Origin: Spirochaetota bacterium
GTDB lineage: Bacteria > Spirochaetota > UBA4802 > JAFGDQ01
Reading direction: 5' to 3'
Length of the DNA stretch: 64,000 nt
Assembly (NCBI GenBank): GCA_016932015.1
Contig: JAFGDQ010000019.1
Span: 11,214-75,213, forward strand
In this document: piece after piece, positions 44,452 through 60,739 of the stretch
Layout: each line of letters starts with the position of its first letter
Numbering within the stretch: the first letter of the stretch is position 1
Notes under the pieces: generated by a model
Seen by the model: the letters and a program-made list of their open reading frames with translations, nothing else
Told to the model about the DNA's origin: nothing
Database searches by the model: none
Program-made: the position numbers and the translations under genes

Positions 44452-45903
44452 TCAGGCTATTTTTTTTACCGGAGAAATTTTATAGGACCTGAAAGTACGC
44501 GCCCGCACACATCCTTTGAAAACTCCTGCCTGATAGAAAATATGTTCTGATAAATAAAACAAAAGAAAAGAAGGATAATTAAGTTCTGGTTTCCTAACTG
44601 CATAGTCCACAGAAGAACAGAGCAGTATCATAAATAAAGCAAGCAGCCACACGGGAAAATAAAAAATTCCGATAAGCAGTAAAGCAGTCAGATAATATCT
44701 TATTAAATGAAATGACAGATAATAAAATAATGAGAAGTAGCTTCGAATTATTGAAAAGAATATTTTTTCCGGTTTTATCCCGCGGTACATGCGGCACATT
44801 CTGAAAATTTTTATTATGCTTTCAGTTAGGTAGCATCCTGCTGAAATCAGAAGCGGAAGAAATGACAGGGAAATGATGCTGACGCAGATTCCGAGAAAAG
44901 CTATGGAGCTTAAAACAGGAGCAGGAAGTATCTTCTTTTTGTTTTTATGAAGAGAGTATAGCACAGCTTCGGATGTCCCGTAATCAGCTCGTCTTTTCAG
45001 CATTTGCAGCAGGGCATTTCTATGCTTGTGCCTGACGGCACCGTGCGGTGCGTAAAGAAGTCTGTATCCTTTTTGCCGCATTCTCCAGCAGAAGTCCACA
45101 TCTTCCCCTACGTGCAGATTTTCGTTTATTCCTCCTGTATCATTGTATACTTTTTTTCTGACAAGGAGATTGCAAGTGGGCACATAAAACGTGTTGTCAT
45201 TATTTCCGCTGAGCTGAAGGTGCTTTCCCATATTAAGCGACGACATGGCACATTCGTAGCGGTCAAGGCCGGACGATTTGTAATATCCGTCAACAAAACC
45301 GCCTGCTGCTCCAACATCCTTCCATTGAAAGTAGGCAGTCAGCTCCTTAAGCCATGTTTTTGAAGCAACACAGTCGCTGTCAAGAAAAGCAAGAATGGTT
45401 CCTTTTGCTTTCTTAGCTCCAATATTACGGCAACAGGACTGGCCGCGGTTTATTTTATTTCTGATGATTTTAACTGGAAATTTTTCTGCAACATCTTCTG
45501 ATCCGTCCGTTGAACCGTCATCAATAACAATAACTTCGAGTTTATTTTTCGGATAGTCCTGGGCGAATACGGAATTCAGGCATTCTTTGAGCTCCCGTTT
45601 ACGGTCTTTACTGGGAATGATAACAGAAACAGAAGGGAGCTTCTCTGCCGGCCTGGCTTGTTTTATTTCAAGCATGCCCTTATTGCTGAAGTAGCTGCAT
45701 ATTTTGAAAACATGTTCTTCACTGGTACCCGCTGATTTTGCAATATCTTTAATAAGCGTTTTACCGTTGCATAATTTCATTATTTCTACAACTCGCTCGT
45801 TGATTTTTATAATTTTCAGCGGAATTTCGGAGATTACAAGGTAAGCGTCCCCTGATTTTTTAAAGCGGATTTTATTTCTTAATTTGTATAGAAGAGGAAT
45901 CAA
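44452..45903 (-). CDS. family-2 glycosyltransferase with N-terminal PqqD-like (RRE) domain and C-terminal TM helices; candidate MftF-like tailoring enzyme
   Basis: Residues ~10-85 show a PqqD-like pattern (INERVVEIMKLCNGKTLIKDIA....SEEHVFKICSYFSNKGMLE). GT2 core (VSVIIPSKDR...VIVIDDGSTDGS, DSDC). Last gene of the mftA-like operon. Confidence 0.7.
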   Translation of the reverse strand: MIPLLYKLRNKIRFKKSGDAYLVISEIPLKIIKINERVVEIMKLCNGKTLIKDIAKSAGTSEEHVFKICSYFSNKGMLEIKQARPAEKLPSVSVIIPSKDRKRELKECLNSVFAQDYPKNKLEVIVIDDGSTDGSEDVAEKFPVKIIRNKINRGQSCCRNIGAKKAKGTILAFLDSDCVASKTWLKELTAYFQWKDVGAAGGFVDGYYKSSGLDRYECAMSSLNMGKHLQLSGNNDNTFYVPTCNLLVRKKVYNDTGGINENLHVGEDVDFCWRMRQKGYRLLYAPHGAVRHKHRNALLQMLKRRADYGTSEAVLYSLHKNKKKILPAPVLSSIAFLGICVSIISLSFLPLLISAGCYLTESIIKIFRMCRMYRGIKPEKIFFSIIRSYFSLFYYLSFHLIRYYLTALLLIGIFYFPVWLLALFMILLCSSVDYAVRKPELNYPSFLLFYLSEHIFYQAGVFKGCVRARTFRSYKISPVKKIA

Positions 45904-45957
45904 TATTAAGCTGACCTGTAAGTAATTAAAATAAGCAGTAAAGATAAAAATAAAATT

Positions 45958-47094
45958 TTAAAAATATTTATCAAGCCCCATATGCTGATGAAGTGATAAA
46001 AAGTTTTTTCCCCCGGATTTAAACATGATTTTAAGATAATGAAATCCTTCAAAAGGAAGAGCGTATCTTTCGAGGCCAGGCTCTGTACATGAAATGCATT
46101 CTTTAAATTTACCGGATTGTTTCCTGAAATTTTTCGCGGTTTTTGATGTAAGTATTTCCTTAAGAGGGCTATTTTTAAAATTGCCGAGATTTGCTTTTAT
46201 AAGCGGACAGGAAAAAATGTCGCCTGTACTTCTTATAAAATAATAATTAAATCCTGCAGAGCATGGTTTTTTAACTTTTTTATTTTTGAAAAAATTGACC
46301 AGCATGTCTTTATGATAGCTCCACAAAAAACGGGGGCTTGCATAGAAACCGATCATTTTGCTTATATCGTTTTCACTGAAGATTAAATTATTTTCAAGGT
46401 CGGTGTTATTGTATCTGTTTTTTGTTATAATGCATGGAGATATGATAGTGAAAAGATTATTCCTTTCCGCGTATTCCATTATGCTGTCAAGCTCGTTAAT
46501 GTTTACAGGCAGTATTGTGGTTTTTAATCCGATTATCAGGTTGCCATATTTTTTTCTTGCCTTGATCGCGCCCTGAATTGTTGTGTTCAGTTTATCCCAT
46601 CCGTTTTTAAAATTTCTGATTTTGTTATGAATTTCTCCTATAGCGTCCATTGCAAAAACAATAATAAGATCAAGCTTATTCTCTTCCATTACCGGAAGTA
46701 TTTCATCAAGTACAGGCAGTATTGTATCAGTGAGAAATCCATTTGAGGTAATTGCAATAGATTTCAGTTTTTTCAGATTACTGCTTTTGAGTTCGCAGAT
46801 ATTTCCAAGAAGCTCAGGAAGATCATTTCTGATAAAAGGTTCGCCGCCTGTAATATCGAGTTCTTTCAGATTCTTCAATTCACGAGCTGAAAGCAGGTTT
46901 ATCCATTCTTTCACAGAACACTCGGGATTGTCATGAGGGGTTTTCCAGATATTGCACATAATGCATCTGGCAATACAGCGCTGTGTAATTTCAAGGCTGA
47001 GAATTTCAGTGGCAGGGGAAATTCCTGTTAATTTATAAAAACGATACTTAATCCCTTTTAGAATAAGCTTCAGGGTTATAAATAAAATGTTCAT
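45958..47094 (-). CDS. radical SAM / SPASM-domain protein (second maturase-like enzyme in the cluster)
   Basis: CxxxCxxC (CIARCIMC), GGEP motif, C-terminal Cys-rich SPASM-like region (CSAGFNYYFIRSTGDIFSCP...CISC). Confidence 0.8.
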   Translation of the reverse strand: MNILFITLKLILKGIKYRFYKLTGISPATEILSLEITQRCIARCIMCNIWKTPHDNPECSVKEWINLLSARELKNLKELDITGGEPFIRNDLPELLGNICELKSSNLKKLKSIAITSNGFLTDTILPVLDEILPVMEENKLDLIIVFAMDAIGEIHNKIRNFKNGWDKLNTTIQGAIKARKKYGNLIIGLKTTILPVNINELDSIMEYAERNNLFTIISPCIITKNRYNNTDLENNLIFSENDISKMIGFYASPRFLWSYHKDMLVNFFKNKKVKKPCSAGFNYYFIRSTGDIFSCPLIKANLGNFKNSPLKEILTSKTAKNFRKQSGKFKECISCTEPGLERYALPFEGFHYLKIMFKSGGKNFLSLHQHMGLDKYF

Positions 47095-47153
47095 TAAGAA
47101 TAATAGTAAAGAATGGATTTAATATTTATCAATAACGGTTTGTTCCAAGTATT

Positions 47154-48206
47154 CTATGATGCTATCCCGGCGGATTCATTCTGCGACAGATACTCCTGAA
47201 AAGAAAGCATGCATTCAGGGTCTGATTGATTAAGTGATTTCGTTAAAAAATATGCGACAGCAGGACAGCCCCCGTGGCATATATTGAATCTCGGGCATGT
47301 TTCACAGGCTTCTACCCGTATGTTTCTGATCATGTTAAACACGGGAGCATTATTCCATACAGATTCAAATGAATCCCTTCCTGCCCGGCCAGAAATGAAA
47401 AAATCATCCTGAAGAAAGGCACAAGGGTATATTTTGCCGTCAGGTGAAACGCTGCAGGTCATTCTTGCGGCTCCGCACATATTAAGCGCAAGATCGCGCC
47501 TGTCCTGCGCTGTAATTGAAAAGAAGGAATCGCCTGTCAGTACATCCCTGTGAGAGCTTAAGAATTCAGAAAGCTCCGCAAGCTGTTCTTTGCTTAAATG
47601 ATATTCTTCCCATACTTTTTTGGCGTTTCCTGAAGGACGAAACCGCGATAGTCTTGTCTTCGCTTCGTAACGTCTGCCGAGTTCATAGAGATCAAGGATT
47701 TCTCTGAAATTTATTGCTGTTACCACTGTATTAATGCTTAAATTAGGGAATGAATGGTTAACAAGATGTTCAATTCCTTTAATTATTCTGTCAAAGGAGC
47801 CCTTTCCTCTGATACGGTCATTTGTTTCTGCAGCGGCTCCGTCAAGGCTTACCTGAATATAAAGGAGGTCCATGGCTGTTAGTTTTTTAGCGAGTGAGTC
47901 ATTAAGAGTTGTACCGTTTGTACTCACGCATGTTGTGATCCCCTTTTTGTGAGTATAGTTAAGAATGTCAATGAAATCCTCTCTTAAAAACGGTTCACCC
48001 CCGCCGAAATTAATTTGAAACACGCTCATTCTGTAAAGTTCATCAATGAATGAACAGCATTGTTCAAAGCTGAGTTCATCGTCACAGTGTTTGATGGTTT
48101 CTGCGGAAAGACAGTGGCTGCAGTGAAGATTGCATTTTTTTGTAATCTCCCATGTTAGATTCACAGGTGCGCTGAGCAGGTCTTTATATGCTGCTTCGTA
48201 CTTCAA
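47154..48206 (-). CDS. mftC: MftC-like radical SAM / SPASM peptide maturase
   Basis: N-terminus LTWEITKKCNLHCSHCLS closely matches the MftC signature (LTWELT..CNL.C.HCLS). SPASM cysteines (CGAARMTCSVSPDGKIYPC...CETCPRFNICHGGC). Overlaps the MftB-like gene by 23 nt. Confidence 0.8.
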   Translation of the reverse strand: MKYEAAYKDLLSAPVNLTWEITKKCNLHCSHCLSAETIKHCDDELSFEQCCSFIDELYRMSVFQINFGGGEPFLREDFIDILNYTHKKGITTCVSTNGTTLNDSLAKKLTAMDLLYIQVSLDGAAAETNDRIRGKGSFDRIIKGIEHLVNHSFPNLSINTVVTAINFREILDLYELGRRYEAKTRLSRFRPSGNAKKVWEEYHLSKEQLAELSEFLSSHRDVLTGDSFFSITAQDRRDLALNMCGAARMTCSVSPDGKIYPCAFLQDDFFISGRAGRDSFESVWNNAPVFNMIRNIRVEACETCPRFNICHGGCPAVAYFLTKSLNQSDPECMLSFQEYLSQNESAGIAS

Positions 48207-48489
48207 GGATAAGCCCCTTTTTAATTAATGTTTTCAGCAGTCTTTTTATTCTTTCTATGTCATAGCTGTTTTTGCAATGATGTTTAAGAAAGTATTGTTT
48301 CGAATCTATCGATCCGTTCGAATCTATCGATTCGTTCGAATCAATTGATTCGATAGTAAGGAAGCTGCCGGATTTGATAAAAGTCAGATTCGTATCTTTA
48401 CTGTTGTAAAGTAAAAGGCCGAATTTTTCCGGCCTGGCTCTCACGCCGGGTGAGAGCCGGTAAAATGTATTGCCGTCTAAAATATTCAC
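48184..48489 (-). CDS. mftB: MftB-like PqqD-family RiPP recognition element (peptide chaperone)
   Basis: 101 aa. FYRLSPGVRARPEKFGLLLYNSKDTNLTFIKS matches the MftB pattern (L.P.V.LR.E.FG.L.Y......L.F). GTG start 3 nt after the precursor stop. Confidence 0.7.
   Translation of the reverse strand: MNILDGNTFYRLSPGVRARPEKFGLLLYNSKDTNLTFIKSGSFLTIESIDSNESIDSNGSIDSKQYFLKHHCKNSYDIERIKRLLKTLIKKGLILEVRSSI
48295..48354. repeat. imperfect 18-nt tandem repeat x3 inside mftB-like gene (encodes (E/G)SIDSN x3)
   Basis: cgaatctatcgatccgtt / cgaatctatcgattcgtt / cgaatcaattgattcgat read directly. In-frame 6-aa repeats. Confidence 0.6.
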
Positions 48490-48491
48490 TT

Positions 48492-48620
48492 TTAATAAAC
48501 TCCGCAGATTCCGTCAACTGCGAGATCTTCTACCTCAATTTCTTCAAGAATATCTGTTTTTTCGTTTTTTACTTCCTCTTCATCCTTGATTTCTTTGTCT
48601 TTCATTAAAACAGTTTTCAT
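48492..48620 (-). CDS. mftA: mycofactocin-precursor-like peptide (MftA-like), 42 aa: MKTVLMKDKEIKDEEEVKNEKTDILEEIEVEDLAVDGICGVY
   Basis: Not in the ORF track (<60 aa). Found by translating the minus strand. RBS AGAGGA is 8 nt upstream of the ATG. Acidic leader. C-terminal VDGICGVY-stop matches the IDGMCGVY core of MftA. The MftB-like gene follows immediately. Confidence 0.75.
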   Translation of the reverse strand: MKTVLMKDKEIKDEEEVKNEKTDILEEIEVEDLAVDGICGVY

Positions 48621-48710
48621 TTTGATGTTCCTCTTTAATAAAATATTTTTTAATTATTAGTGATAAAACCGGTAAAATAATTTTCAGAATATTTTTCTGG
48701 AAATTATTTA

Positions 48711-49817
48711 TTAAAATTCACAAACCCAGCGTCCATGTATTTTATGTTCACGCATTGCGTCATGAACAGACTGCAGCTCTTCAAGTTTAAATTTTTTAGT
48801 GATCAGCTTATCCAGATCAATATATCTTTTATCCATAACAAGGTCGGCAAAAGCCGGGATATCGGTATGTACATGAACATGTCCGTACATTACGCCTATT
48901 ATATCTTTAGCATGGAGCGGAGTAAAAATAATCTGTAACTGAGCTTTCTTTGATGCGTCCTGAAGTCCGATTTGTATCTGCTTGCCTCCGATTCCAAGAG
49001 CCCAGTAAATCTGTTCAATCGCACCCACATCTCCGCTCGCTTCAAACGCATAATCAACTCCGCCTCCGCTCAGTTCCTGAACAATCGGTATAGGGTCCTG
49101 CTTGCTGCTGTCAATAAAATGAGTAGCTCCGAATTCCTTGGCTATGGCTTCCTTGCTGCCCTCTATGTCAACAGCTATTATCGGTTTTGCTCCTGCTAAT
49201 TTTGCTCCCTGAAGGACATTCAGCCCAATGCCGCCAATACCCCATACGGCAACACTGTCGCCGGGTTTTACATTCGCGGTGTTAATTACAGCGCCTAATC
49301 CGGTGGGAACGCAGCAGCCGAGCAATGCAGCCTGATCCAGCGGGAAATCCTCTCTTAATTTTATGGCGCCGGATTCCGGAATTACAAGATATTCGGCGAA
49401 ACCTGAAACGAATACTGAATGGTACAGTGGCTTCCCGTTAGCGTCTGTAAGTCTTGATGTGCCGTCAAGCAGTGAACCGGCTTCGATAAAATTCCGGTAT
49501 TCGGGACAGATGTATTCGTTTCCCTTTACGCATTGCTTGCATCTTCCGCATGACACAGCCCAGCAGGCTACAACATGATCTCCTTTTTTTATTCTTTTTA
49601 CACCGGGGCCTACATCGACAACAACGCCCGAGGCCTCGTGACCTGTTACGAACGGGATCGGGAATAACTGGCCACTTTCTACAGCTGAAAAATCGGAATG
49701 ACAATACCCGCAATAATGTGTTTTTACAAGAACTTCATTTTCTTTAGGCGGCGCAAGATTTACTTCCTCAATTGTAATAACTTTCGGTTCTCTGACAACC
49801 GCAGCTTTCATTTTCAT
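48711..49817 (-). CDS. zinc-dependent alcohol dehydrogenase (MDR family), candidate nicotinoprotein/mycofactocin-coupled dehydrogenase
   Basis: GYCHSD...G and GHEASGVV catalytic-Zn motifs. Structural Zn CGRCKQCVKGNEYIC. Rossmann motif VWGIGGIGL. The ATG at 49817 with RBS AGGAGG is preferred over the GTG at 49823. Confidence 0.85.
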   Translation of the reverse strand: MKMKAAVVREPKVITIEEVNLAPPKENEVLVKTHYCGYCHSDFSAVESGQLFPIPFVTGHEASGVVVDVGPGVKRIKKGDHVVACWAVSCGRCKQCVKGNEYICPEYRNFIEAGSLLDGTSRLTDANGKPLYHSVFVSGFAEYLVIPESGAIKLREDFPLDQAALLGCCVPTGLGAVINTANVKPGDSVAVWGIGGIGLNVLQGAKLAGAKPIIAVDIEGSKEAIAKEFGATHFIDSSKQDPIPIVQELSGGGVDYAFEASGDVGAIEQIYWALGIGGKQIQIGLQDASKKAQLQIIFTPLHAKDIIGVMYGHVHVHTDIPAFADLVMDKRYIDLDKLITKKFKLEELQSVHDAMREHKIHGRWVCEF

Positions 49818-49853
49818 AAACACCCTCCTGAAATCCTTATGTCAAATTTTAAT

Positions 49854-49876
49854 TCCGCGTTTTATTATACCGCGGA
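49854..49876. promoter_or_regulatory. palindromic operator TCCGCG-N11-CGCGGA bracketing a TATAAT (-10, minus strand) upstream of the ADH-mftABC operon
   Basis: GC-rich 6-bp inverted arms in an AT-rich spacer read directly. TATAAT (rc of 49864-49869) lies between the arms, ~40 nt upstream of the ADH start. Confidence 0.35.
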
Positions 49877-50241
49877 CAAGATTTTACTGAAGTGAAGATA
49901 AATATTGATAATGTTAACTAATACCCTAAAGCTTAAAATAACGTACTAAAAGAAGTCTGAATATATCACTTCTGACAATTCACCAGATATTAAAAAAGGT
50001 GAGGTATATTATCACACATGAAAATATTGAATATTAATATCTCATATATGAATAGTTTATTTTACATATCGCTTTCAGCGCATTAAGAAATAACGCAGTT
50101 GAAGTAAGGCAGGAGTATAGGAATCAGCAAGAACTGTAATGCGCAGGAAATGTATTTTTATATGAAATCTGATGTTCCTGCCTAACATAATAGTTACATT
50201 GGAAAAAAAATAAAAATAAGTCAAATGATTTTCTGATTTGC

Positions 50242-50268
50242 TTGACAATTATGTAACTTAAATATTAT
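50242..50268 (+). promoter_or_regulatory. sigma-70-like promoter (TTGACA -35; TATTAT -10, 15-nt spacer) for the OYE-Etf-cytochrome gene set
   Basis: Perfect TTGACA at 50242-50247 and TATTAT at 50263-50268. The spacer is short, so confidence is low. Confidence 0.3.
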
Positions 50269-50281
50269 CGTAGAATTAATT

Positions 50282-50305
50282 ACTGTAGAAAATACTATTA
50301 CAGTA
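50282..50305. promoter_or_regulatory. inverted repeat TACTGTA-N10-TACAGTA (candidate repressor operator) between promoter and 50392 start
   Basis: Perfect 7-bp inverted arms read directly, ~15 nt downstream of the -10. Confidence 0.4.
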
Positions 50306-50391
50306 TTGCCTTTTTTCTTCACGTTATTTACTTAGGGGTTTCTGCCCTGTCCATTTCCGGGTAGACTAAATTTAAAAAAAAGAATACAGCC

Positions 50392-52338
50392 ATGTCGGAT
50401 AACTTTTTGAGTCCACTGAGCATAGGCAGTATTACTCTGCCTAACCGTGTCTGTTTTCCCGCTCATAGAACAAATTTCTCCGTAAGGGGACGTTTAACCG
50501 ATCAACATATTGCCTACTATTCAAGAAGAGCCCGCGGGAAATGTGGAATGATTATTCTCGGTGAAATCTGCATTCATCCTGATGACAGACCATGGGAATC
50601 CATGATTGAAATATTTAATACTGAAGCAGTTAGGGACTTCCGCAGGATCACAGATGCAGTACATCAATACGGAACATTGATGCTGGCCCAGCTTAACCAT
50701 CACGGATTCCAGAGCAGCGGCAGCATTACAAGAAAAGCCATATGGGGTCCTTCGGCTAATGCTGATATCGTTTTCGGCGAAACATCAAAGCCGATGGAAA
50801 CAGAGGATTTTGAAACAGTAATTAAGGCTTTCTCAGACGCGGCCCTGATCGCGCGTGAAAGCGGATTTGACGGAATTGAAATAGACATCGGGCAGGAATC
50901 TCTGCTCAGACAGTTCCTTTCCCCTTTAACCAATTTCCGCCGGGATGAATACGGCGGAAGTGTTGAAAACAGAATAAAGTTTCCTCTTGATGTATTAAAA
51001 GCAGTTAGAAAAGCTATCGGCAATGATTTCACTGTAGGCGTCAGGCTGTGCGCTGATGAAAAATTCTGGGGAGCAATTACTCTTGAAGATTCAGTACAGT
51101 TTGCTGAAAGGTTTGTCAGCAACGGAAAGGCTGACTTTATTAATGTAACAGTCGGCACTTATTACAGCCTGCATATGTTTATGGCTTCAATGCATGTGCC
51201 ACCCGGGTTTGCTCTTGATGCTGCTGAAGGAATAAAAAAATCCGTAAGCGTTCCTGTAATCGCCTGCCATCAGATAACCACTCCGCAAATGGTGAATGAA
51301 ATTATTGAAAAAGAGCAGGCTGATGCAGCAGGTATGGTGCGCAGTCTCATTTGTGACCCTGATTTCACGTTAAAGGCTATGGAAGGAAGAGCTGATGATA
51401 TTCGCTACTGCGTCAGGGATAATAAAGGATGTATTGGAAGAGTCAACAATAAAAGAAAAATAGAATGCATCCAGAACCCTGAGGTGGGAAGGGAGGAATA
51501 CTATTCAAATTATCCTTTTGCTGCTGAGATAAAAAAACGTGTTATGGTTATCGGTGCCGGTCCTGCTGGAATGGAAGCGGCAATTACAGCAGCAGAGAAA
51601 GGACATGATGTTATTATTTATGAAAAAGAGGATACAGTAGGCGGACAGATAAACCTGATCAAAAAAAGGCCCAGGCGCCAGGGCATGGGCGGAGTAATAA
51701 ATTATCTGCAGAGAAATATTGAAAGACTTGAGATTCCTGTTAAGACAGGTATAGAAGTTAATTCATCGGTAGTTTCGGAGCATAACCCTGATGTTGTTAT
51801 AGTAGCGACAGGATCATTTCCCGCGGCAAAGCCTGTACCCGGAGATTATCAGGCTCCTGATGTTCTTACGGTAAATCAGGTTCTCGGCAGTGCGTTTAGC
51901 ACAGGCGAAAAGATACTTTTTATAGATGAGAACGGCAATCATCATTCGATATCAACGGTTGAGTTTCTCGCTGACCAGGGAAAGAAAGTGGATATGATCA
52001 CCAGCGATCTTTTTATCGGGGTCGAGCTTTCTCCGCTTGGCGACCTTTCCATGTCAAGACAGCGTCTGCTTCAGAGCGGAGTTACGTTTAAAACTGATCT
52101 GATGGTTGATGAAATTCAGGGGAAGCGTGTTGTCGCAAGGGATATGTACACGAACAAACCGGTAATATTCGATGATTATGATACAATCATACTTGATATG
52201 GGGAATGTTCCATGCGATGGAATTTATAAAGAGCTTAAGGGAAAAGTAAAAGAGCTTTATCGCGCCGGTGACTGTGTTGCGCCCAGGGGAATTGACATGG
52301 CAATTCTTGAAGGCCGTAAAGCAGGAGAGAGAATATGA
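50392..52338 (+). CDS. OYE-like FMN oxidoreductase fused to FAD/NAD(P)-binding domain (2,4-dienoyl-CoA reductase / enoate reductase family); Fe-S motif degenerate
   Basis: TIM-barrel OYE motifs (HRTN, GFDGIEI, R...YGGS). C-terminal GAGPAG Rossmann motif. The Cys cluster reads C-x6-C-x11-C (CVRDNKGCIGRVNNKRKIEC), so the second Cys of the usual CxxC is missing. Confidence 0.8.
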   Translation: MSDNFLSPLSIGSITLPNRVCFPAHRTNFSVRGRLTDQHIAYYSRRARGKCGMIILGEICIHPDDRPWESMIEIFNTEAVRDFRRITDAVHQYGTLMLAQLNHHGFQSSGSITRKAIWGPSANADIVFGETSKPMETEDFETVIKAFSDAALIARESGFDGIEIDIGQESLLRQFLSPLTNFRRDEYGGSVENRIKFPLDVLKAVRKAIGNDFTVGVRLCADEKFWGAITLEDSVQFAERFVSNGKADFINVTVGTYYSLHMFMASMHVPPGFALDAAEGIKKSVSVPVIACHQITTPQMVNEIIEKEQADAAGMVRSLICDPDFTLKAMEGRADDIRYCVRDNKGCIGRVNNKRKIECIQNPEVGREEYYSNYPFAAEIKKRVMVIGAGPAGMEAAITAAEKGHDVIIYEKEDTVGGQINLIKKRPRRQGMGGVINYLQRNIERLEIPVKTGIEVNSSVVSEHNPDVVIVATGSFPAAKPVPGDYQAPDVLTVNQVLGSAFSTGEKILFIDENGNHHSISTVEFLADQGKKVDMITSDLFIGVELSPLGDLSMSRQRLLQSGVTFKTDLMVDEIQGKRVVARDMYTNKPVIFDDYDTIILDMGNVPCDGIYKELKGKVKELYRAGDCVAPRGIDMAILEGRKAGERI

Positions 52339-54293
52339 GTGAGTACAAATATCTTTTTTCTCCTTTAAAGATAGGCTCAGCAGTTGTGCCGAACCGTATT
52401 CACTTTGCAGCGCATATGACAAATTTCGGGGAGGCCCAGAAAGTAAGCGAAAGGCATATTGCCTATTACAGGGAGCGCGCAAGAGGCGGTTGCGGTCTTA
52501 TCACTACTGAAGAACTTACGGTTCATCCAACAGACCATGCGTATGAAAAACTTGTGGACGCTTTTAAGCCGGAAGTAATCCCGGGATTCAGGGCGCTTAC
52601 TGATGAAATACATAAATTTGATACAAAAATTTTCGCACAGCTGAATCATAATGGTACACAGGCAGACAGCAGTATATCAAGAATTCCTTTATGGGGACCG
52701 TCCACCTGCGCCGATCCAATGTTCAGGGAAACCTGCAAGGAAATGGAGATTGAGGATATAAAGGAATGCATTGAGTATTATGCGATCAGCGCGCTACATG
52801 CTGTTGAAGGAGGGTTTGACGGTATTGAGCTGCAGTTCGGGCACAGTTCTCTTATAAGGCAGTTCCTGTCTCCTGCAACGAATTTTCGCAAGGATGAATA
52901 CGGCGGAAGTTTTGAGAACAGGCTTCGTTTTGCCGTTGAAGTAATTGAGGCTGTCAGGAAAACGGCAGGCCCTGACTTTACTCTCGGCGTGCGGCTGAAT
53001 GCTGATGAAATGCATCCCAGAGGCGGGATTACTCTGGATGATGCAAAGCTGATCGCCACAGCTTTTGAAAAAACGAATAATATTGATTTTATGGACCTGA
53101 GCCTTGGAACTTTCTATAATCTTTTTCTTGTTGAAGGCTCAATGCATACACCTCTTGCCTATACGGTCCCGCTTTCCGCGGCAATACGCTCAGCTGTTCA
53201 GGTTCCGGTTTTCTGCACAAACCGTATAAATGACCCGCATCTTGCCGAGAGTATTCTTGAAAACGGCCAGGCTGATATGATCGGAATGGTCCGCGCTCTT
53301 ATCTGCGATCCTGAACTGCCTAATAAAGCCAGGGAAGACAGAGCTGAGGATATTCGTTACTGCATAGCATGCAATCAGGGATGTATAGCGCGTATGGGGC
53401 TTGGTCATTCGCTCGGCTGTCTTCAGAATCCTGCAGTAGGGGATGAGAAAAATCTCGGAGCCGGTACACTGAAATCCTGCGAAGAACCGAAAAAAGTCGT
53501 GATAATAGGAGCAGGTCCTGCTGGTCTTGAAGCCGCGAGAACTGCTGCATTAAGAAAGCATAATGTGATTATTTTTGAAAAAAATTCCGAGCCGGGTGGA
53601 CAGAATATTACAGCAGGCAAACCAGCGGGCAGACAGGAAATAACAGGTGTTACAAGGTGGCTGCTTAGCCAGGTAAATAAACTGGATATTGATATGCGTC
53701 TCAATACAGAGGCGGACGTTGAAATGATTTTGAAAGAGAATCCTGATGCTGTTGTAATCGCGACCGGTTCTGTGCCTAAAGAGAGGCCTTTTCCAGGGGA
53801 CTATTCTTTTCCCGATGTGGTAAATACTCAGCAGATACTCAACAAGGAGGTTGAAGCAGGTGATAAGGTACTGCTTGTTGATCTTGAAGGCCATCATCAG
53901 GGGGCCGGAACTGCTGAATTTCTTGCTGATTATGGAAAACAGGTTCACATCATTACATCGTCATTATTTGCTGGTGGTGCTCTCGGGCCGCTTCAGGATC
54001 TGTTTCTTGCAAGAAAGCGCCTTGCTGCAAAAGAGATCACTTTTACTCCGGATATAGCAGTTCTTGAAATTCAGCAGAAGGTGGCCAAGGGTCTTAGCGT
54101 TTATTCAAATGAGATGATAGATTTTGATGAATTTGACACAATAGTTTTATGTGCAGGAAATGTTTCGGATGACAGACTTTACTTTGACCTTAAGGGCAGA
54201 GTTAAGGAGCTTTACAGAATCGGCGACTGTGTTGCCCCGAGAAAAACCGATATGGCCATACTGGAAGGCCACCGTATTGGAAGAATGTTATGA
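52335..54293 (+). CDS. OYE-like FMN oxidoreductase fused to FAD/NAD(P)-binding domain with intact 4Fe-4S motif (2,4-dienoyl-CoA reductase / enoate reductase family)
   Basis: Same architecture as the upstream paralog, but with a complete CIACNQGCIARMGLGHSLGC motif (C-x2-C-x3-C-x10-C). 4-nt overlap with the upstream gene. Confidence 0.8.
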   Translation: MSEYKYLFSPLKIGSAVVPNRIHFAAHMTNFGEAQKVSERHIAYYRERARGGCGLITTEELTVHPTDHAYEKLVDAFKPEVIPGFRALTDEIHKFDTKIFAQLNHNGTQADSSISRIPLWGPSTCADPMFRETCKEMEIEDIKECIEYYAISALHAVEGGFDGIELQFGHSSLIRQFLSPATNFRKDEYGGSFENRLRFAVEVIEAVRKTAGPDFTLGVRLNADEMHPRGGITLDDAKLIATAFEKTNNIDFMDLSLGTFYNLFLVEGSMHTPLAYTVPLSAAIRSAVQVPVFCTNRINDPHLAESILENGQADMIGMVRALICDPELPNKAREDRAEDIRYCIACNQGCIARMGLGHSLGCLQNPAVGDEKNLGAGTLKSCEEPKKVVIIGAGPAGLEAARTAALRKHNVIIFEKNSEPGGQNITAGKPAGRQEITGVTRWLLSQVNKLDIDMRLNTEADVEMILKENPDAVVIATGSVPKERPFPGDYSFPDVVNTQQILNKEVEAGDKVLLVDLEGHHQGAGTAEFLADYGKQVHIITSSLFAGGALGPLQDLFLARKRLAAKEITFTPDIAVLEIQQKVAKGLSVYSNEMIDFDEFDTIVLCAGNVSDDRLYFDLKGRVKELYRIGDCVAPRKTDMAILEGHRIGRML

Positions 54294-55324
54294 GTTCAGA
54301 TAAAATGAACATATGGATTCTTGTAAACCACAGGCAGGGTACTGTTGAAAAGGAGACTTACGGACTTGCTGCCGAGGCACAGAGGCTGTTAACAATGTCG
54401 AAACAGAATTCCGAAGAATATTGTTCCGATGGCAAAATTACAGCTGTAGCGCTTGGAGCAGGGCTTGATGCTGAACTTAAACAGCTGGGTGCATACGGAA
54501 TTAACAGTGTTGTTTATGCTGAAGGGCAGGAGCTGGCAAGATATAACGGGGAATTATTTGCAGAAGTCCTTCTGAAACTGTATGAAAAATATAAGCCTGC
54601 CTGCATACTAATGGATCATAATACGGAAACATCGGATCTTGCACCCAGGCTTGCTTCATTGATGAATACATCCATCGTTACAAGAGTTATAGATTTTACT
54701 ATCAGCATTAACCGGGAAATTGCAGCTACCCGGCCTGTAAGCAGCGGGTATCTGTTTGAAAAATTTAAACTGGAGCGCACATCCTGTCCGGTTATCACAT
54801 TATTACCAAATGTATTAAATGAAACTGAAGCCGCAGAAAACCGGAATATTGAAATCATAAATGAGAAAATAGATCCCGGCACTTTTAATTTAAAAACAAA
54901 GGTTACAGAAATAATGGAAGCTGCACCGGAGGATCTTGAAATTGATGAAGCCGAAATAGTTATTTCAGGTGGCCGGGGTGTAGGCAAAGAGGAGTCTTTA
55001 GATATTATTACCAGGCTGGCAAAGTCTTTGAAAGGCTCTGTCGGAGGAACAAGGCCGATTATTGACTGGCAGCTGCTTCCTTTTGAGCGTCAGATCGGGC
55101 AGACTGGAAAGGTGATATCCCCCAGGCTTTTATTCGCGTGCGGTATTTCAGGAGCAAATGAATATACTACAGGCATGGAAAAATCCCGCCTTGTCGTCGC
55201 AATAAATACTGATCCCGGAGCCCGCATATTCAAGTTTGCTGATTTGTCTGTTATAGGTGATGTACACGAAGTATTACCCCGGGTGATAGAAAAAATAGAG
55301 GAAAGGGGGATATGGAATTTATAA
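54290..55324 (+). CDS. etfA: electron transfer flavoprotein alpha subunit (EtfA-like)
   Basis: FAD-binding C-terminal domain motifs (VISGGRGVG, IAINTDPGARIF). Confidence 0.8.
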   Translation: MSSDKMNIWILVNHRQGTVEKETYGLAAEAQRLLTMSKQNSEEYCSDGKITAVALGAGLDAELKQLGAYGINSVVYAEGQELARYNGELFAEVLLKLYEKYKPACILMDHNTETSDLAPRLASLMNTSIVTRVIDFTISINREIAATRPVSSGYLFEKFKLERTSCPVITLLPNVLNETEAAENRNIEIINEKIDPGTFNLKTKVTEIMEAAPEDLEIDEAEIVISGGRGVGKEESLDIITRLAKSLKGSVGGTRPIIDWQLLPFERQIGQTGKVISPRLLFACGISGANEYTTGMEKSRLVVAINTDPGARIFKFADLSVIGDVHEVLPRVIEKIEERGIWNL

Positions 55325-55933
55325 ATGAAATTAAGTAATTTAATATTCTTTACTTTGTTTTTGCTTTTACCATTGGCTGTTCAGGCTTCTTATTTTCCTG
55401 AGGACTGCATTGCATGCCATGCGGCAAAAGATGGCGACAGCAGTCTTCAGATTCCTTTACAGGAATTTAACGAATCAGCTCACGGCAGAAATGTGACATG
55501 CACAGATTGCCATAATAGTGTTTTGAATGAAGAGCACATGACTGACGGAGCACATGCTGTTGACTGCAGTCAATGTCATCCCGTGGAATCCGGAGCAACG
55601 GATTATTTTTCTTTTCTTCCTTCTCTGCGTGTTAAATGGCATTTAAAAGGAGACTTTAGCGGAAATTACAACAAAAAAAACTGTATCGGATGCCATCAGG
55701 GTAAAGCTTCTCACGGTAAGGAAGGGGCTGTAGATAAACAGAACTGCTATGTATGCCATATGAAAATAAAAGATAATTCAGTAATCGCGAATATTCATCC
55801 TGTAGCAGATCAGAAAAAACAGCCGCTGATTTTTGCATCAGCTGTTATTTATCAGATATTGATTGTTGTTATATTATTAAGTTTAACAGGTTTTATTTTT
55901 AAAAAGATACTCGGGGAAAAAAAGGGTAAGTAA
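55325..55933 (+). CDS. pentahaem c-type cytochrome with C-terminal membrane anchor
   Basis: Signal peptide. Five CxxCH motifs (CIACH, CTDCH, CSQCH, CIGCH, CYVCH). C-terminal hydrophobic helix. Confidence 0.8.
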   Translation: MKLSNLIFFTLFLLLPLAVQASYFPEDCIACHAAKDGDSSLQIPLQEFNESAHGRNVTCTDCHNSVLNEEHMTDGAHAVDCSQCHPVESGATDYFSFLPSLRVKWHLKGDFSGNYNKKNCIGCHQGKASHGKEGAVDKQNCYVCHMKIKDNSVIANIHPVADQKKQPLIFASAVIYQILIVVILLSLTGFIFKKILGEKKGK

Positions 55934-55935
55934 AA

Positions 55936-57837
55936 TTGTTATCCTCATTTGATATTCTATTAACAGTAATCGCTTTATTTATAATGCTTGCAGGTATTTT
56001 CAGGCACAGGTCTGTCTGGAAAGCAGGCAGGGAGGAGTCCCGTTCAGGAAGTTGGGCAGGTCTTATAAAATATATTTTCGAGCATGGTAAGATACTGAAA
56101 AAAAGGGGCAGGGGGATAGCACATTTTTTTGTGTTTTACGGATTTTTTCTTCCCTTGGTTGTTATAATACTGGCACAGTTTAATTTCGAGATTGGCATTA
56201 TTCCTTCAGGAATTGTCTCTCTGCTGCTGGACATCATTGGGACTTTATTCCTGACAGGAATTGTCATTCTTTTAATAAGACGTATTGTTTCTCAGGATTC
56301 AGAGGGTCCGTTAAGGACAATTTTCCCGATGATTATATTGTGCGTTATAATAATAACCGGCTTTCTTGCTGAAGGAGCCCGGCTCGGCATTTCAGGAACA
56401 GAAACAGTATGGGCATCACCTGTGGGCTGGATTTTTTCCGTATTTGTCCCTGCTTCGCCATCCTTTATGCAGATAATAATACGCGTACATTTCTATGCTG
56501 TTTTACTGTTTTTAGCGCTGCTGCCGTTTAATTTTGCAAAACATATTATTGCCTCTTCGCTTAATGTTTATTTTAAAAGAAAAAATCCGCGCGGTGAATT
56601 AAATAAAGCTTATTTAACAGACGATTCCGCAGGAGCGGCTATTGTCAGAGATTTTACATGGAAACAGCTGCTTGATGCAGAGGCTTGCGTGTCATGCGGA
56701 AGATGTGAAGAAAATTGTCCCGCATTTATTTCAGGAAAGCCGTTGTCTCCAAGGAAGATCATCAGAGATATATACAATCTGATGTATCTTTCAAACGGTG
56801 AAAAAATATCATCAAATATGCTGGAGAGTACAATCAGCAATGACGAGATCTGGTCATGCACAGCATGCATGGCCTGTGTAGAGCACTGCCCTGTATACGC
56901 GGAGCCGATGGACAAGATCATTGACATGCGCCGCCATCAGGTTATGTGCAAAGGGCAGCTTCCTGCTGAAGCAGTACCCATGATACGCAATCTTGAGATA
57001 TTCGGCGATGTACAGGGCAAAGGCGCTGCTCACAGAATGGACTGGGCCATGAGTCCTGATCTTGAATTTGCTAATGCTGAAAATGCTGATGCTGATATTC
57101 TGTTATGGCCGGGATGTTCGGGCGCGTTTCATCCGAGATATCAGGAAGTGCTGAAAGCTATGGTAAAGATACTGAACACAGCACGAATCAGGTTCAGCAC
57201 ATTAGGCAAAGATGAATTATGTTGTGGAGATCCTGCAAGACGCCTTGGAAATGAAAGTCTTTTTCTCGAACTGGCCGGGAAAAATATCAGCAGTTTCAGG
57301 AAGAACAATATTAAAAAGATTCTTACTCTTTGCCCGCATTGTTTTAATACTTTAAAGAATGAATATCCTGGAGTTGAAAAAGAATTATTTAATAAATCAA
57401 AAGAAAATATTGAAGTTGTGCATGCTTCTGAATATATAATGGAATTGATTAAAGTAAAACGTATAGTCCCGAAATATCCGCTAAAGAAAAATATTGCTTT
57501 TCAGGACCCGTGTTATCTGGGGCGGGTAAATGGAATTTATAATGAACCGAGAGAAGTAATTTCAAGCATACCGGGAACCGCCTTAAAAGAACTTGATCAC
57601 AACAGGGAAACCGGATTCTGCTGCGGAGGCGGCGGAGGCGGAATGTGGATGCACGAGCATTCCGGTAAACGAATGAACGTTATAAGGGCGGAGGAAGTTG
57701 CAGAAGCTGACCCTGAGGTTTTGTGTACAGCGTGTCCGTATTGTCTGACAATGCTTGAAGACGGGCTTAGTTCTCTGGAGTCGGAAAAAGAGACGAAGGT
57801 GCTTGATATTGTTGAGATTATTGCAGGGGCGATATGA
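55936..57837 (+). CDS. membrane-bound HdrD/DsrK-like iron-sulfur oxidoreductase (N-terminal 5-6 TM domain + 2x[4Fe-4S] + two CCG domains)
   Basis: TTG start after RBS AAGGGTAAG. Ferredoxin motifs CVSCGRCEENCP and CTACMACVEHCP. CCG-domain cysteines (CPGCSG...CCGDP; CPHC...CCGGGGGG...CTACPYC). Resembles fused HdrE/DsrM-HdrD/DsrK modules. Confidence 0.75.
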   Translation: MLSSFDILLTVIALFIMLAGIFRHRSVWKAGREESRSGSWAGLIKYIFEHGKILKKRGRGIAHFFVFYGFFLPLVVIILAQFNFEIGIIPSGIVSLLLDIIGTLFLTGIVILLIRRIVSQDSEGPLRTIFPMIILCVIIITGFLAEGARLGISGTETVWASPVGWIFSVFVPASPSFMQIIIRVHFYAVLLFLALLPFNFAKHIIASSLNVYFKRKNPRGELNKAYLTDDSAGAAIVRDFTWKQLLDAEACVSCGRCEENCPAFISGKPLSPRKIIRDIYNLMYLSNGEKISSNMLESTISNDEIWSCTACMACVEHCPVYAEPMDKIIDMRRHQVMCKGQLPAEAVPMIRNLEIFGDVQGKGAAHRMDWAMSPDLEFANAENADADILLWPGCSGAFHPRYQEVLKAMVKILNTARIRFSTLGKDELCCGDPARRLGNESLFLELAGKNISSFRKNNIKKILTLCPHCFNTLKNEYPGVEKELFNKSKENIEVVHASEYIMELIKVKRIVPKYPLKKNIAFQDPCYLGRVNGIYNEPREVISSIPGTALKELDHNRETGFCCGGGGGGMWMHEHSGKRMNVIRAEEVAEADPEVLCTACPYCLTMLEDGLSSLESEKETKVLDIVEIIAGAI

Positions 57838-57871
57838 CCCCTATCCCCTCGCCATGCTACATATAGCGTTT

Positions 57872-58332: not shown

Positions 58333-59190
58333 ATGAAAATAATTGTTTGCGTAAAGCAGATATATCATACATACGCAAGAACCGGCACTGACCCGGATAA
58401 GATGTTTATTGCGCCTGAGGACACAGTCGCAAGAATCAATCCTTATGATGAAGCAGCACTTGAAACTGCTCTGTGTTTTAAAGATTTAGATCCGGAAACT
58501 GAAATTACACTTTTAACACTTGGTCCTCTTATTGCAGAAAGTGGGCTTAGAAGATGCCTTGCAATGGGCGCTGATAACCTTGTTCAAATAGATGCAGAAA
58601 GACAGTTGGATTCAAAAAATAAGTCTGAATACATGGCAAAAGCTGTAGAGGAGATCGGAGCTGATATTGTTTTATGCGGGAAAGAGTCTCTTGATACGCA
58701 GAACGGACAGGTGGGAGCTTTTCTTGCCCGTATTCTGAATGTTCCATTTGTTTCAGTAGTGCTTGAATTCAGGTTGAAAAGCAATAATATAGAAGTTATA
58801 AGATCAGCCGGACGCGGTGTGCGTGAAAGAATTGAGTGTCCGGTTCCTGTTGTTTTAAGCGTGGACATGGGGCAGAAAGAACCGCGACTGCCCACATATA
58901 TGTCTAAAAAGAAAGCTGAGTTTTTCCAGATACAAACGTTATCATATTATGATAGTGAAATGAATAAGCAAAAAGTATCCCATGATGTTTTTCCTCCAAG
59001 GCCAAGGCCGAAAAAAGCAGCTGCTCCTGACAGTTCACTTGATCCGTATAACCGTATTGATTTTCTATTAACAGGAACCAGGGTTGAGAAAAAAGGAGCA
59101 GTACTCAGAGGTGATGCTGAAGTTCTGGCTGACGGCATTGTTTCTTTTCTTGATGAGCATGGATTCCTGAATGCGGAAAAGGCTGAATAG
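58333..59190 (+). CDS. etfB: electron transfer flavoprotein beta subunit (EtfB-like)
   Basis: MKIIVCVKQ... N-terminus and overall EtfB pattern. Confidence 0.8.
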   Translation: MKIIVCVKQIYHTYARTGTDPDKMFIAPEDTVARINPYDEAALETALCFKDLDPETEITLLTLGPLIAESGLRRCLAMGADNLVQIDAERQLDSKNKSEYMAKAVEEIGADIVLCGKESLDTQNGQVGAFLARILNVPFVSVVLEFRLKSNNIEVIRSAGRGVRERIECPVPVVLSVDMGQKEPRLPTYMSKKKAEFFQIQTLSYYDSEMNKQKVSHDVFPPRPRPKKAAAPDSSLDPYNRIDFLLTGTRVEKKGAVLRGDAEVLADGIVSFLDEHGFLNAEKAE

Positions 59191-59205
59191 ATAAATGTTT
59201 CTGAT

Positions 59206-60303
59206 ATGAGTGTGCCAATTTCATCAGCAGAACTTCTTAACAAGATTAGAGAAGCAGGTCTCGAAGCTCCGGAAACATTAACTTTAATGATAACCGGGAA
59301 ATGTAATTTAACCTGTCTTCATTGCCTTCTGAACTGCAGAGAAAATAATTCTTCACCTGTACCTGCCGATGTTGTAAAAAGAATGATAAAGGAATTTTTG
59401 GATATTTCAGGAAAATCAATATGGTTTACAGGCGGTGAACCGCTTACGCGGTCTGACTGGTTTGAGATTCTTGAATTTGCTATGCAGTACGAATTTGAAG
59501 AAGTAGGCCTGCAGACCAATGCTATGCTTATGACTGAAGAGGACCTTCACAGACTGCAGACATTGCCTTTGAATAAGCTGAGTCTGCAGATAAGCCTGGA
59601 CGGTGTTTCTGCAATAACGCATAATGCGCTGAGAGGTGAAGGCAGCTTCGATATTGTAATGAAGGTGCTGAAAATGCTTTCATCTACTGATCTTGCCTGT
59701 AGAACTGCAGTCGCTTTTACTGAGATGCGTCACAATTATCATGAACTTCCTGATGCTGTTTATCTGGTAAACAATTTAGGGCTGTCCCGCCTTGTAAGCG
59801 GTACAGTCGTGAGATCAGGCAAATGTACACAGTACGGCTGGATAGAACTTCCTGCTGCACCGCAGGTCAATGATCTGCTTGATAAATACAATAATGATAC
59901 ATCTTTTCATGATGCATATGAGCAGTCAGGAAATATTTCAGCAATAGAATGGTTTAAGGGAAAGGACAGGAAGACTGACAAACTCTGCACCTGCATGAGT
60001 ACTCCGTTTATAAATTCAGAAGGTGAATTGTTTCCCTGTATAATGTATCTCGACAAATCATTTGCAGAAGGAAACATTCATGAGATTTCACTTGCTGAGG
60101 CAATACTTAACGGGCTTTCAAAATGGAAAGAACTCCCGCTGACAGCTGATAGGCGAAGTAATCTTCCTGAATGCAGGGAATGCCCCGGGCATGACCATTG
60201 CAAGGGAGGCTGTGTCGGGAGAGCTGCTGTTGTTAACGGAACTCCGATGTCTGTCGAAGACCGCTGCGCTTTAAGAAAAATTGTTTATAACTGGAAAGAT
60301 TAA
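59206..60303 (+). CDS. radical SAM / SPASM-domain protein (third in window)
   Basis: CxxxCxxC (CNLTCLHC), GGEP. SPASM cysteines (CTCMS...GELFPC...CRECPGHDHCKGGC). Confidence 0.8.
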   Translation: MSVPISSAELLNKIREAGLEAPETLTLMITGKCNLTCLHCLLNCRENNSSPVPADVVKRMIKEFLDISGKSIWFTGGEPLTRSDWFEILEFAMQYEFEEVGLQTNAMLMTEEDLHRLQTLPLNKLSLQISLDGVSAITHNALRGEGSFDIVMKVLKMLSSTDLACRTAVAFTEMRHNYHELPDAVYLVNNLGLSRLVSGTVVRSGKCTQYGWIELPAAPQVNDLLDKYNNDTSFHDAYEQSGNISAIEWFKGKDRKTDKLCTCMSTPFINSEGELFPCIMYLDKSFAEGNIHEISLAEAILNGLSKWKELPLTADRRSNLPECRECPGHDHCKGGCVGRAAVVNGTPMSVEDRCALRKIVYNWKD

Positions 60304-60457
60304 GAGCATTTATAAAACAGGAAATCATGTCATTTATACCTCTTTTTTTTCACAGGAAATTTTTTAAAAAAGATAAAACACTCTTTACAATATAATTATT
60401 ATATTCATTTAAAGAAAATAATTTGATATATACAGATGTTTGAAGAGGATTTTAATA

Positions 60458-60739
60458 ATGTTTAAAACCAGAATTCATATATACGGCCTTCCAAAGGATA
60501 TTTCAGATTTACGTGAGATTGAAGTTGAACTTAATGATGGTGCGGGAATGAATGAAGTCGTAAGTGCGATGAGAGAAAAGATCCCGGCACTCGAAGGGTC
60601 TGTAATCCTGGAAGGTGAGAACAGGCTGGCCGAATATTACAAATTCAACATAAACGGCCATTTTTATTTCGACGGAATGGAATTTGAGTTGAATGAAGGT
60701 GACCGGATCGCGCTTCTTATGCCTATGCCGGGAGGTTAG
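60458..60739 (+). CDS. MoaD/ThiS-like ubiquitin-fold protein ending in Gly-Gly
   Basis: 93 aa from the ATG at 60458 (RBS AGAGGA). The track ORF uses an upstream TTG. C-terminus ...ELNEGDRIALLMPMPGG-stop is comparable to the MoaD ...DGDEVAFFPPVTGG-stop. No cysteines. Confidence 0.45.
   Translation: MFKTRIHIYGLPKDISDLREIEVELNDGAGMNEVVSAMREKIPALEGSVILEGENRLAEYYKFNINGHFYFDGMEFELNEGDRIALLMPMPGG

Follow-up and report, generated by a model that had tools for sequence, protein, structure and literature searches.

How a mycofactocin-type cofactor could be made without MftD and MftE, two enzymes of the canonical pathway, is the question raised by a gene cluster in the metagenome-assembled genome (MAG) of a Spirochaetota bacterium, found in a 64,000-nucleotide stretch (contig JAFGDQ010000019.1, positions 11,214 to 75,213, assembly GCA_016932015.1) that is referred to in its entirety as the window. 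In the canonical pathway MftE cuts out the core, the flavoenzyme MftD creates the redox centre and MftG re-oxidises the cofactor; to our knowledge, aerobic actinobacteria are the only organisms in which mycofactocin has been elucidated. The window locus shows the tested features of the variant-type mycofactocin system as defined in the databases, and two canonical features, MftD and MftE, are absent. It is probably such a variant-type system, belonging to strict anaerobes and arranged here in two divergent operons.

The first operon is on the minus strand. An open reading frame (ORF) check of the window found all six of the co-directional genes that an earlier note on this DNA had placed there (44452-49823), namely a leading zinc-dependent alcohol dehydrogenase (ADH), mftA, mftB, mftC, a second radical S-adenosylmethionine (SAM) enzyme, called rSAM2 here, and a glycosyltransferase. 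The GTG of mftB lies 2 bases after the stop codon of mftA, mftB and mftC overlap by 23 nt, and the other genes are 90, 59 and 54 nt apart, the last two gaps flanking rSAM2. Both ends of the operon fall within the window, where it is flanked by a convergent gene (43234-44406) and a divergent gene starting at 50392, so no further operon genes are hidden past the window edge. The case that the earlier note had named as refuting its proposal, mftD and mftE lying just past the window in the same operon, is therefore inapplicable.

Identities were judged by the curated cut-offs of NCBIfam hidden Markov models (HMMs), with Pfam scans alongside, and for the mft genes they are far beyond chance. The 42-residue precursor MftA (48492..48620, minus strand) passes NF040489, ‘variant-type mycofactocin precursor’ (39.6, cut-off 30), a label that agrees with the earlier proposal of a mycofactocin-like cofactor variant, and also the general model TIGR03969 (25.5 bits, cut-off 25). 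Its C-terminus (...AVDGICGVY) keeps the Cys-Gly-Val-Tyr end, and the clade motif at this terminus, ILEEIEVEDLAVDGICGVY, recurs in nearly all related loci. The RRE-type chaperone MftB (48184..48489, minus strand, GTG start) scores 52.2 against TIGR03967 (cut-off 33). Within mftB, an 18-nt unit is repeated three times in tandem (48299-48352, coding ESIDSN/ESIDSN/GSIDSK), an insertion that relatives do not have; the protein is 101 residues long in the window and 84 in the related locus L002. The radical-SAM/SPASM maturase MftC (47154..48206, minus strand), named ‘mycofactocin radical SAM maturase’ in GenBank, scores 340 bits against TIGR03962 (cut-off 265, E 1e-101). Its radical-SAM cysteines 25/29/32 (CxxxCxxC) and seven SPASM cysteines are invariant across the clade, giving three Fe-S cluster sites.

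The glycosyltransferase (44452..45903, minus strand) is MftF, the name carried by GenBank MBN2038989.1. It scores 348.5 bits against TIGR03965 (cut-off 280), with profile positions 3-462 of 467 matched, and consists of an N-terminal RRE-like domain, a GT2 core and a C-terminal membrane region. Neither MftB nor the MftF N-terminus matched PqqD in the Pfam scan, which gave weak winged-helix matches alone for the latter, while an alignment of 51 MftF N-termini resembles the MftB RRE alignment (hhalign probability 87%, E 3.7e-6, 79 columns). The N-terminal PqqD/RRE-like domain described earlier is thus real, but it is a normal and standard part of the MftF family model, not an added fusion. As the glycosyltransferase is an ordinary full-length MftF, it is not a replacement part.

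The leading ADH was called as an ORF at 48711-49823; the ATG at 49817, behind AGGAGG, is the more likely start (48711..49817, minus strand), and public assemblies carry the resulting 368-residue form. Pfam ADH_N and ADH_zinc_N are matched, and the best NCBIfam family is that of the NDMA-dependent ADHs (TIGR03989), reached with 302 bits. This falls short of the cut-off of 440, so that the nicotinoprotein type assigned earlier was not borne out. The protein is 37-38% identical to the NDMA-ADHs that adjoin mft genes in Thermomicrobium roseum, and in no fewer than 26 of the related loci a homologue with 47-60% identity heads the operon. It is the likely client dehydrogenase of the cofactor.

No gene for MftD, MftE or MftG was found. 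In Pfam annotations or scans that extended to practically all window genes of plausible size, no FMN_dh (MftD, TIGR03966/PF01070) or creatininase (MftE, TIGR03964/PF02633) domain came up. Likewise, tblastn searches with annotated MftD (three), MftE (two), MftG and MftM seeds, taken from Mycolicibacterium, Tsukamurella, Thermomicrobium and Haloterrigena plasmid records, detected no counterpart either in the window or in the related loci; as a control, the MftD seeds find each other across phyla, as do the MftE seeds. The reported absence of MftD and MftE from the operon therefore holds, and extends to the whole window. Species-representative genomes searched with an MftC alignment gave 80 loci at an MftC identity of 50% or more (canonical MftCs, 41-44%). 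None of the 80 has MftD, MftE or MftG in the ±10 kb around MftC, so that the absence characterises the clade as a whole. In 2011 Haft had already observed that neither MftD nor MftE is universal (PMC3023750). Two peptidases of the window, an M15 dipeptidase (39843-40526) and an omptin-like protein (40526-41533), were considered as substitutes for MftE and dismissed, since their N-termini resemble signal peptides and the related loci have no peptidase family in common.

The comparison with the canonical MftABCDEF(G) system of Mycobacterium (PMC3023750; PMC11778925) is accordingly mixed. The CGVY precursor, MftB, MftC and MftF pass the curated cut-offs, and a Zn-ADH of the NDMA-ADH lineage adjoins the mft genes, as in the canonical system. 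In contrast, MftD, MftE, MftG, MftM and MftR are all absent from the window, which carries FadH/OYE, electron transfer flavoprotein (ETF) and extra radical-SAM genes instead; window MftC and MftF are 41-44% and 25-33% identical, respectively, to canonical proteins, and the leader motif is EIEVEDLAVDGIC rather than EEVSIDGMC.

The 80 related loci belong to Syntrophorhabdales, many Desulfobacterota, Gaiellales/Thermoleophilia, Dehalococcoidia, Peptococcaceae, Acidobacteriota, Goldiibacteriota and one Leptospirales MAG, and the precursor motif ILEEIE[VI]E[DE]L[AT]VDGICGVY is common to nearly all of them. A closed genome with a locus of this type is that of Ca. Formimonas warabiya DCMF (NZ_CP017634, L017), and Pelotomaculum is another cultured carrier. 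Unbiased clustering of their ORFs returned MftC in 70 loci, MftF in 56, OYE in 47, ETF alpha in 46, ETF beta in 43, a FixC-like protein in 41, MftB in 33 and ADH in 26, with FixX also conserved; no peptidase family and no FMN_dh family emerged from the 80 loci. OYE and ETF are thus the most conserved non-Mft genes, and the gene directly after MftC is OYE in 23 and MftF in 18 of the 44 well-covered loci. In several genomes one co-directional operon holds the whole set, for example ADH-A-B-C-OYE-ETF-FixCX-ETF-rSAM2-MftF in L002. Gene order indicates that the window carries the same system, divided in two by rearrangement.

The second operon lies on the plus strand (50392-62115), across an AT-rich divergent spacer of 574 bp (49818..50391) and outside the coordinates of the earlier note, which therefore missed the conserved partners encoded there. 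It starts with two FadH/OYE flavoenzymes (Pfam Oxidored_FMN and Pyr_redox_2 in the first). Paralogue 1, with FMN, 4Fe-4S and FAD/NAD domains (OYE1, 50392..52338), scores 771 bits against TIGR03997, just under the cut-off of 793, and the second (OYE2, 52335..54293) passes it with 872; GenBank MBN2038996.1 is the latter, named mycofactocin system FadH/OYE family oxidoreductase 2. Next are ETF alpha (54290..55324; Pfam ETF and ETF_alpha), a small multihaem c-type cytochrome of the c3/NrfH-like type with a signal or anchor sequence (55325..55933; weak Pfam Cytochrom_CIII and weak NrfH matches), and a membrane Fe-S protein with CCG domains (55936..57837; HdrD/DsrK/TmcB-like; Pfam Fer4 and CCG). The cytochrome has the same position in L009, L048, L056, L065 and L146. 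The CCG protein matches the NCBIfam families TfrB, LdhH, TmcB, DsrK and HmcF, every one below cut-off, and is the likely link to the quinone pool. ETF beta (58333..59190; Pfam ETF) has a conserved C-terminal tail and is followed by rSAM3 and the remaining genes described below. The gap of 495 nt between the CCG protein gene and ETF beta (57838-58332) contains no convincing ORF and no Rfam match, and is unconserved in related loci.

NCBIfam holds models for the variant-type precursor (NF040489), the FadH/OYE oxidoreductases (TIGR03996/TIGR03997) and the ETF subunits (TIGR04503 and NF038209). MftA and OYE2 of the window pass their cut-offs, the gene content is that of the 80 related loci, and the GenBank names given to MftC, MftF and OYE2 of this MAG agree with a variant-type reading. 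Unlike other variant-type loci, the window distributes the system over two divergent operons, with rSAM2-MftF shifted to a place immediately after MftC, and has the cytochrome and CCG membrane protein in place of FixC/FixX.

The enzyme rSAM2 (45958..47094, minus strand) has no RRE. It matches Pfam Radical_SAM and SPASM (SPASM 41 bits) and reaches no NCBIfam family at cut-off, the top score being 52.7 bits. An alignment of 32 homologues shows conserved cysteines at 40/44/47 in the radical-SAM core and at C278, C296, C333 and C336 after it, and a conserved C-terminal motif of its own, CTEPGLERYALPFEGF. The presence of four conserved C-terminal cysteines, not seven, points to one twitch-like auxiliary cluster, so that its description as a second radical-SAM/SPASM enzyme stands for the Pfam match but not for a full 7-Cys SPASM domain. 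The AlphaFold2 model (pLDDT 93) matches many SPASM/twitch enzymes in the PDB (Foldseek, E 1e-12 to 1e-7, TM 0.43-0.60). With twitch/SPASM tailoring enzymes such as SkfB, BlsE, BtrN, DesII and anSME it shares the fold and a single four-Cys auxiliary cluster site; it differs from them in sequence (11-18% identity), in its C-terminal motif and in having MftF as its gene partner.

More than 100 homologues of rSAM2 with over 50% identity were found in metagenomes. A metagenome scan by alignment gave 80 loci, 29 of which have at least 1.5 kb on both sides and were taken as informative. An MftF-like glycosyltransferase adjoins rSAM2 in 21 of the 29, upstream in 14 (sometimes with a member of the third radical-SAM family in between) and immediately downstream in 7, and ETF beta is just upstream of rSAM2 in 18 of the 29. 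The glycosyltransferase of the upstream arrangement scores 359 and so counts as a true MftF (curated cut-off 280). Conversely, of 44 genome loci that encode a complete MftF, only 4 have rSAM2 as its neighbour. This asymmetry is the pattern expected of an optional tailoring enzyme tied to MftF, and these neighbourhoods identify rSAM2 as a putative accessory partner of MftF, present in a subset of these systems. Because rSAM2 is beside MftF in so few loci, yet MftD and MftE are missing from 80 of 80, it is not a general substitute for them, and the suggestion that the second radical-SAM enzyme and the glycosyltransferase stand in place of MftD and MftE fails, the latter being a canonical MftF. 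What survives of the earlier interpretation is a mycofactocin-type system without MftD and MftE, not the replacement roles. The absence of the two genes is a known, clade-wide trait, the RRE-fused glycosyltransferase an ordinary MftF and the extra radical-SAM enzyme an accessory in a subset, and all three carry less weight than they were first given.

A third radical-SAM enzyme, rSAM3 (59206..60303, plus strand), is distantly MftC-like and has a full SPASM domain; its best NCBIfam match is TIGR03962 (121 bits, cut-off 265), and it is 26% identical to window MftC. Homologues with 43-46% identity adjoin rSAM2 and MftF in L004 and follow ETF beta in L056, and a homologue is present in 13 of the 80 rSAM2 loci. 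Downstream are genes for a MoaD/SAMP-like small protein with a Gly-Gly end (...MPMPGG; 60440..60739, plus strand; TIGR01687, 37.5 bits, cut-off 49.5), an SDR-family oxidoreductase (short-chain dehydrogenase/reductase; 60775..61539, plus strand) and a class I SAM-dependent O-methyltransferase (61555..62115, plus strand; Pfam Methyltransf_3) unrelated to MftM. The SDR has generic matches and scores 170 bits against the mycofactocin-coupled SDR family (TIGR03971, cut-off 300); it is possibly a second client dehydrogenase. Both extra radical-SAM enzymes of this MAG are named merely “radical SAM protein” in GenBank, and rSAM2, rSAM3 and the MoaD-like protein are outside all curated models. In L004 (4941-13295, = L104) a true MftF is found with rSAM3-like and rSAM2-like genes, with no MftA, MftB or MftC within 7 kb; Pup-ligase genes, a B12-type radical-SAM methyltransferase and a 61-residue ORF are upstream, and MoaA, a ThiS/MoaD-like gene and ThiF downstream. 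The last ~44 residues of window ETF beta, YNRIDFLLTGTRVEKKGAVLRGDAEVLADGIVSFLDEHGFL (59047-59178), are 59% identical to this stand-alone 61-residue ORF upstream of MftF (L004 7129-7314), and ORFs like the tail also occur in L123 and L124, so that it looks like a small conserved module.

In a variant-type system of this kind, MftB would present MftA to MftC, which would decarboxylate the C-terminal Tyr of MftA and cross-link Tyr to Val, as in mycobacteria; this chemistry is expected from the retention of the CGVY end and of every cluster ligand. MftF would then glycosylate the MftC product, and rSAM2 may be a tailoring enzyme that acts with MftF on its substrate or product, either on the sugar or on the aglycone. 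ADH (and the SDR) would use the cofactor as electron acceptor, and the FadH/OYE-ETF-cytochrome/CCG module would pass electrons between cofactor and membrane, a task that falls to MftG in mycobacteria. The same module may also provide an oxygen-independent oxidation that replaces MftD. More speculatively, since OYE2 is homologous to trimethylamine and histamine dehydrogenases, one OYE might carry out the oxygen-free oxidative release of the keto-lactam.

Several points weigh against the variant-type reading. ADH and the ETF subunits are under the curated cut-offs of the mycofactocin-associated families, ETF alpha scoring 129 bits against NF038209 mft_etfA (cut-off 240) and ETF beta 88 bits against TIGR04503 mft_etfB (cut-off 200), the latter aligned to the profile end (289/290) and carrying the C-terminal tail of that family. 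The search for MftD and MftE in this MAG covered the 64-kb window, and the genes could lie elsewhere in the genome. The variant type is known as curated HMM names alone, and no paper on variant-type systems turned up in the literature, whether under the variant type itself or under mycofactocin combined with ETF and anaerobes. The rSAM2 model matches SkfB, BlsE, SuiB, MoaA, CteB, viperin, EpeE, PqqE, anSME, DesII and BtrN about equally, and because these include peptide- and sugar-modifying enzymes alike, the substrate is not inferable from the fold; some rSAM2 homologues with 54% identity adjoin flavodoxin and molybdenum cofactor (Moco) genes, with MftF not nearby. Finally, a sub-clade of the related loci (L067-L087) has no OYE and ETF near mft and also no MftD and MftE, which means that OYE/ETF is not a universal substitute.

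This sub-clade is found in Desulfobacteraceae and Syntrophobacteraceae (e.g. L079 9980-15600 and L084 1130-8330). The MftA end is DGICGIY, with Ile-Tyr for Val-Tyr, and the gene order is SDR-MftA-MftB-MftC-MftF, followed by three genes that on sequence reading resemble LarE, LarB and LarC, the proteins of nickel-pincer cofactor synthesis.

Beyond the assignment to the variant type, it is conceivable, and proposed here tentatively, that the anaerobes make a chemically distinct mycofactocin-like cofactor independently of oxygen. A FadH/OYE enzyme resembling trimethylamine dehydrogenase, with ETF, would take the place of MftD and possibly of MftE; rSAM2 (with MftF) and rSAM3 (with the MoaD-like protein as sulfur carrier) would add modifications unknown in mycobacteria; and the cofactor would wire nicotinoprotein dehydrogenases to the membrane via ETF and the cytochrome/CCG complex.

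A narrower proposal, which we consider unlikely, is that FadH/OYE and ETF replace MftD and MftE together. Acting on the MftC-modified residue much as trimethylamine dehydrogenase acts on amines, the flavoenzyme would dehydrogenate the C-alpha-N bond there, and the N-acyl imine would be hydrolysed to the keto-lactam core and an amidated leader, with neither oxygen nor a peptidase involved. The position of OYE directly after MftC, the conservation of OYE and ETF in the related loci and the anaerobic hosts are all in keeping with this, and the two paralogous OYEs of the window leave room for one biosynthetic and one recycling enzyme. Trimethylamine dehydrogenase hands electrons to ETF, and the complex of the two proteins is found in PDB entries 1O94 and 1O95. 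OYE2 has the same three-domain layout (FMN, 4Fe-4S, ADP/FAD) as this enzyme (PDB 1DJN, 1O94; E 1e-65) and is likewise paired with ETF. Its nearest solved structures are those of naphthoyl-CoA reductase, FadH, trimethylamine dehydrogenase and histamine dehydrogenase, but it is closer to the first two, which are ene-reductases and not amine dehydrogenases. The proposal is pure inference, and against it stand the sub-clade in which OYE/ETF and MftD/MftE are both missing, and the plasmid pHTUR01 of Haloterrigena turkmenica (L094, 5608-14918), where MftE is combined with an ETF/FixCX module. The order there is mftE-A-B2-C-F, then ETF, FixC/FixX and an FAD oxidoreductase, with no mftD; MftA ends in IDGICGVY, like the variant type, and the archaeal locus is thus an intermediate.

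It is improbable that rSAM2, and with it rSAM3 and the MoaD-like protein, is unrelated to the peptide and matures some other metallo-cofactor or enzyme, for example one of tungsten or molybdenum. The gene neighbourhoods cited in its favour are those of homologues with 54-55% identity that adjoin flavodoxin, MoaE, XdhC and molybdopterin oxidoreductase genes (L006/L007), and of others that adjoin MoaA with ThiS/ThiF-like genes (L004, L121, L155). The lack of an RRE in rSAM2 points the same way, as do weak matches of both radical-SAM enzymes to the tungsten-cofactor radical-SAM maturase family (48 and 75 bits), although these are far under its cut-off of 380. The location of rSAM2 inside the window mft operon, with short gaps on both sides, argues for a link to the peptide instead, as does the MftF-like glycosyltransferase beside it in most informative loci in two different gene orders. 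The MAG that contains one of the flavodoxin/Moco-linked homologues (L007) also has a variant mft locus, on another contig (L016).

A standard pathway is quite improbable. In this case mftD and mftE would be elsewhere in the genome, the product would be an ordinary glycosylated mycofactocin and the extra genes bystanders. The invariant CGVY end of MftA and its pass of the general MftA model would fit, as would the confinement of the search to the window. Scattered mft genes do exist: the T. roseum locus is also incomplete relative to mftABCDEF, with mftD apart from and opposite to mftABCF and mftE not nearby. However, Haloterrigena and T. roseum each keep one of MftD and MftE and the window has neither, and neither gene was found near MftC in any of the 80 related genomes, where OYE and ETF are the conserved neighbours instead. 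In addition, NCBI curators made an ‘exception’ model that separates these precursors from true MftA, and MftCs of the clade are at least 50% identical, against the 41-44% of canonical ones. That the product is a secreted or antimicrobial RiPP (ribosomally made, post-translationally modified peptide), not a redox cofactor, is highly improbable, as the precursor peptide, RRE protein, radical-SAM enzymes and glycosyltransferase form a generic RiPP toolkit but the conserved set has no transporter, immunity gene or leader peptidase, the constant neighbours are dehydrogenases, flavoenzymes and ETF, and the core, an invariant Val-Tyr, is that of a known cofactor.

At the DNA level, the divergent spacer has no Rfam match and no conservation in related loci, and the intergenic regions of the window in general are not conserved there. 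Rfam returned a single tRNA over the whole window, and so no riboswitch, and a simple terminator and promoter scan gave nothing exceeding shuffled controls. A scan of the window for sigma-54 promoters (TGGCAC-N5-TTGCW, up to 2 mismatches) gave 23 matches where 26.6 were expected, none of them in the spacer. A sigma-54-dependent activator with a GAF-like N-terminus (62209-63741, minus strand) adjoins the plus-strand operon, and partial matches to it (56-66% of query length, 38-45% identity) occur near mft or rSAM2 in several loci, including L067, L069, L073, L140, L143 and L149. The GC content of the window is low, about 0.32-0.46; it is 0.40-0.46 over the mycofactocin/OYE/ETF region (50000-62000) and 0.32-0.39 in most of the remainder (1-36000), and the raised value is consistent with horizontal acquisition.

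Elsewhere in the window, a secreted protein (38499-39827) has a VWA domain and a ‘NADase_transloc’ F5/8 type C domain, and its neighbours are the M15 D-Ala-D-Ala dipeptidase, the omptin-like outer-membrane protein and an L,D-transpeptidase. The remaining genes are ordinary housekeeping genes (4454-7999, 25428-30271, 31264-31336), among them a 1181-residue pyruvate:ferredoxin oxidoreductase, an ExbB/ExbD/TonB cluster with a TPR protein, and one tRNA gene.

About 25% of MftC-encoding genomes have no MftG, and how these cope was left open by the study of that enzyme (PMC11778925). The window is not unique in this respect; it is one well-assembled example, much of it labelled in GenBank, of a type flagged by curators and widespread in anaerobes. 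It belongs to a large clade, spread over several anaerobic phyla, in which MftD, MftE and MftG are lacking and FadH/OYE flavoenzymes and ETF are retained instead, partly along with extra radical-SAM enzymes. Once a single system of this kind is solved, the oxygen-free synthesis and recycling of a redox cofactor built from a peptide would become clear, and a new cofactor structure could come to light.

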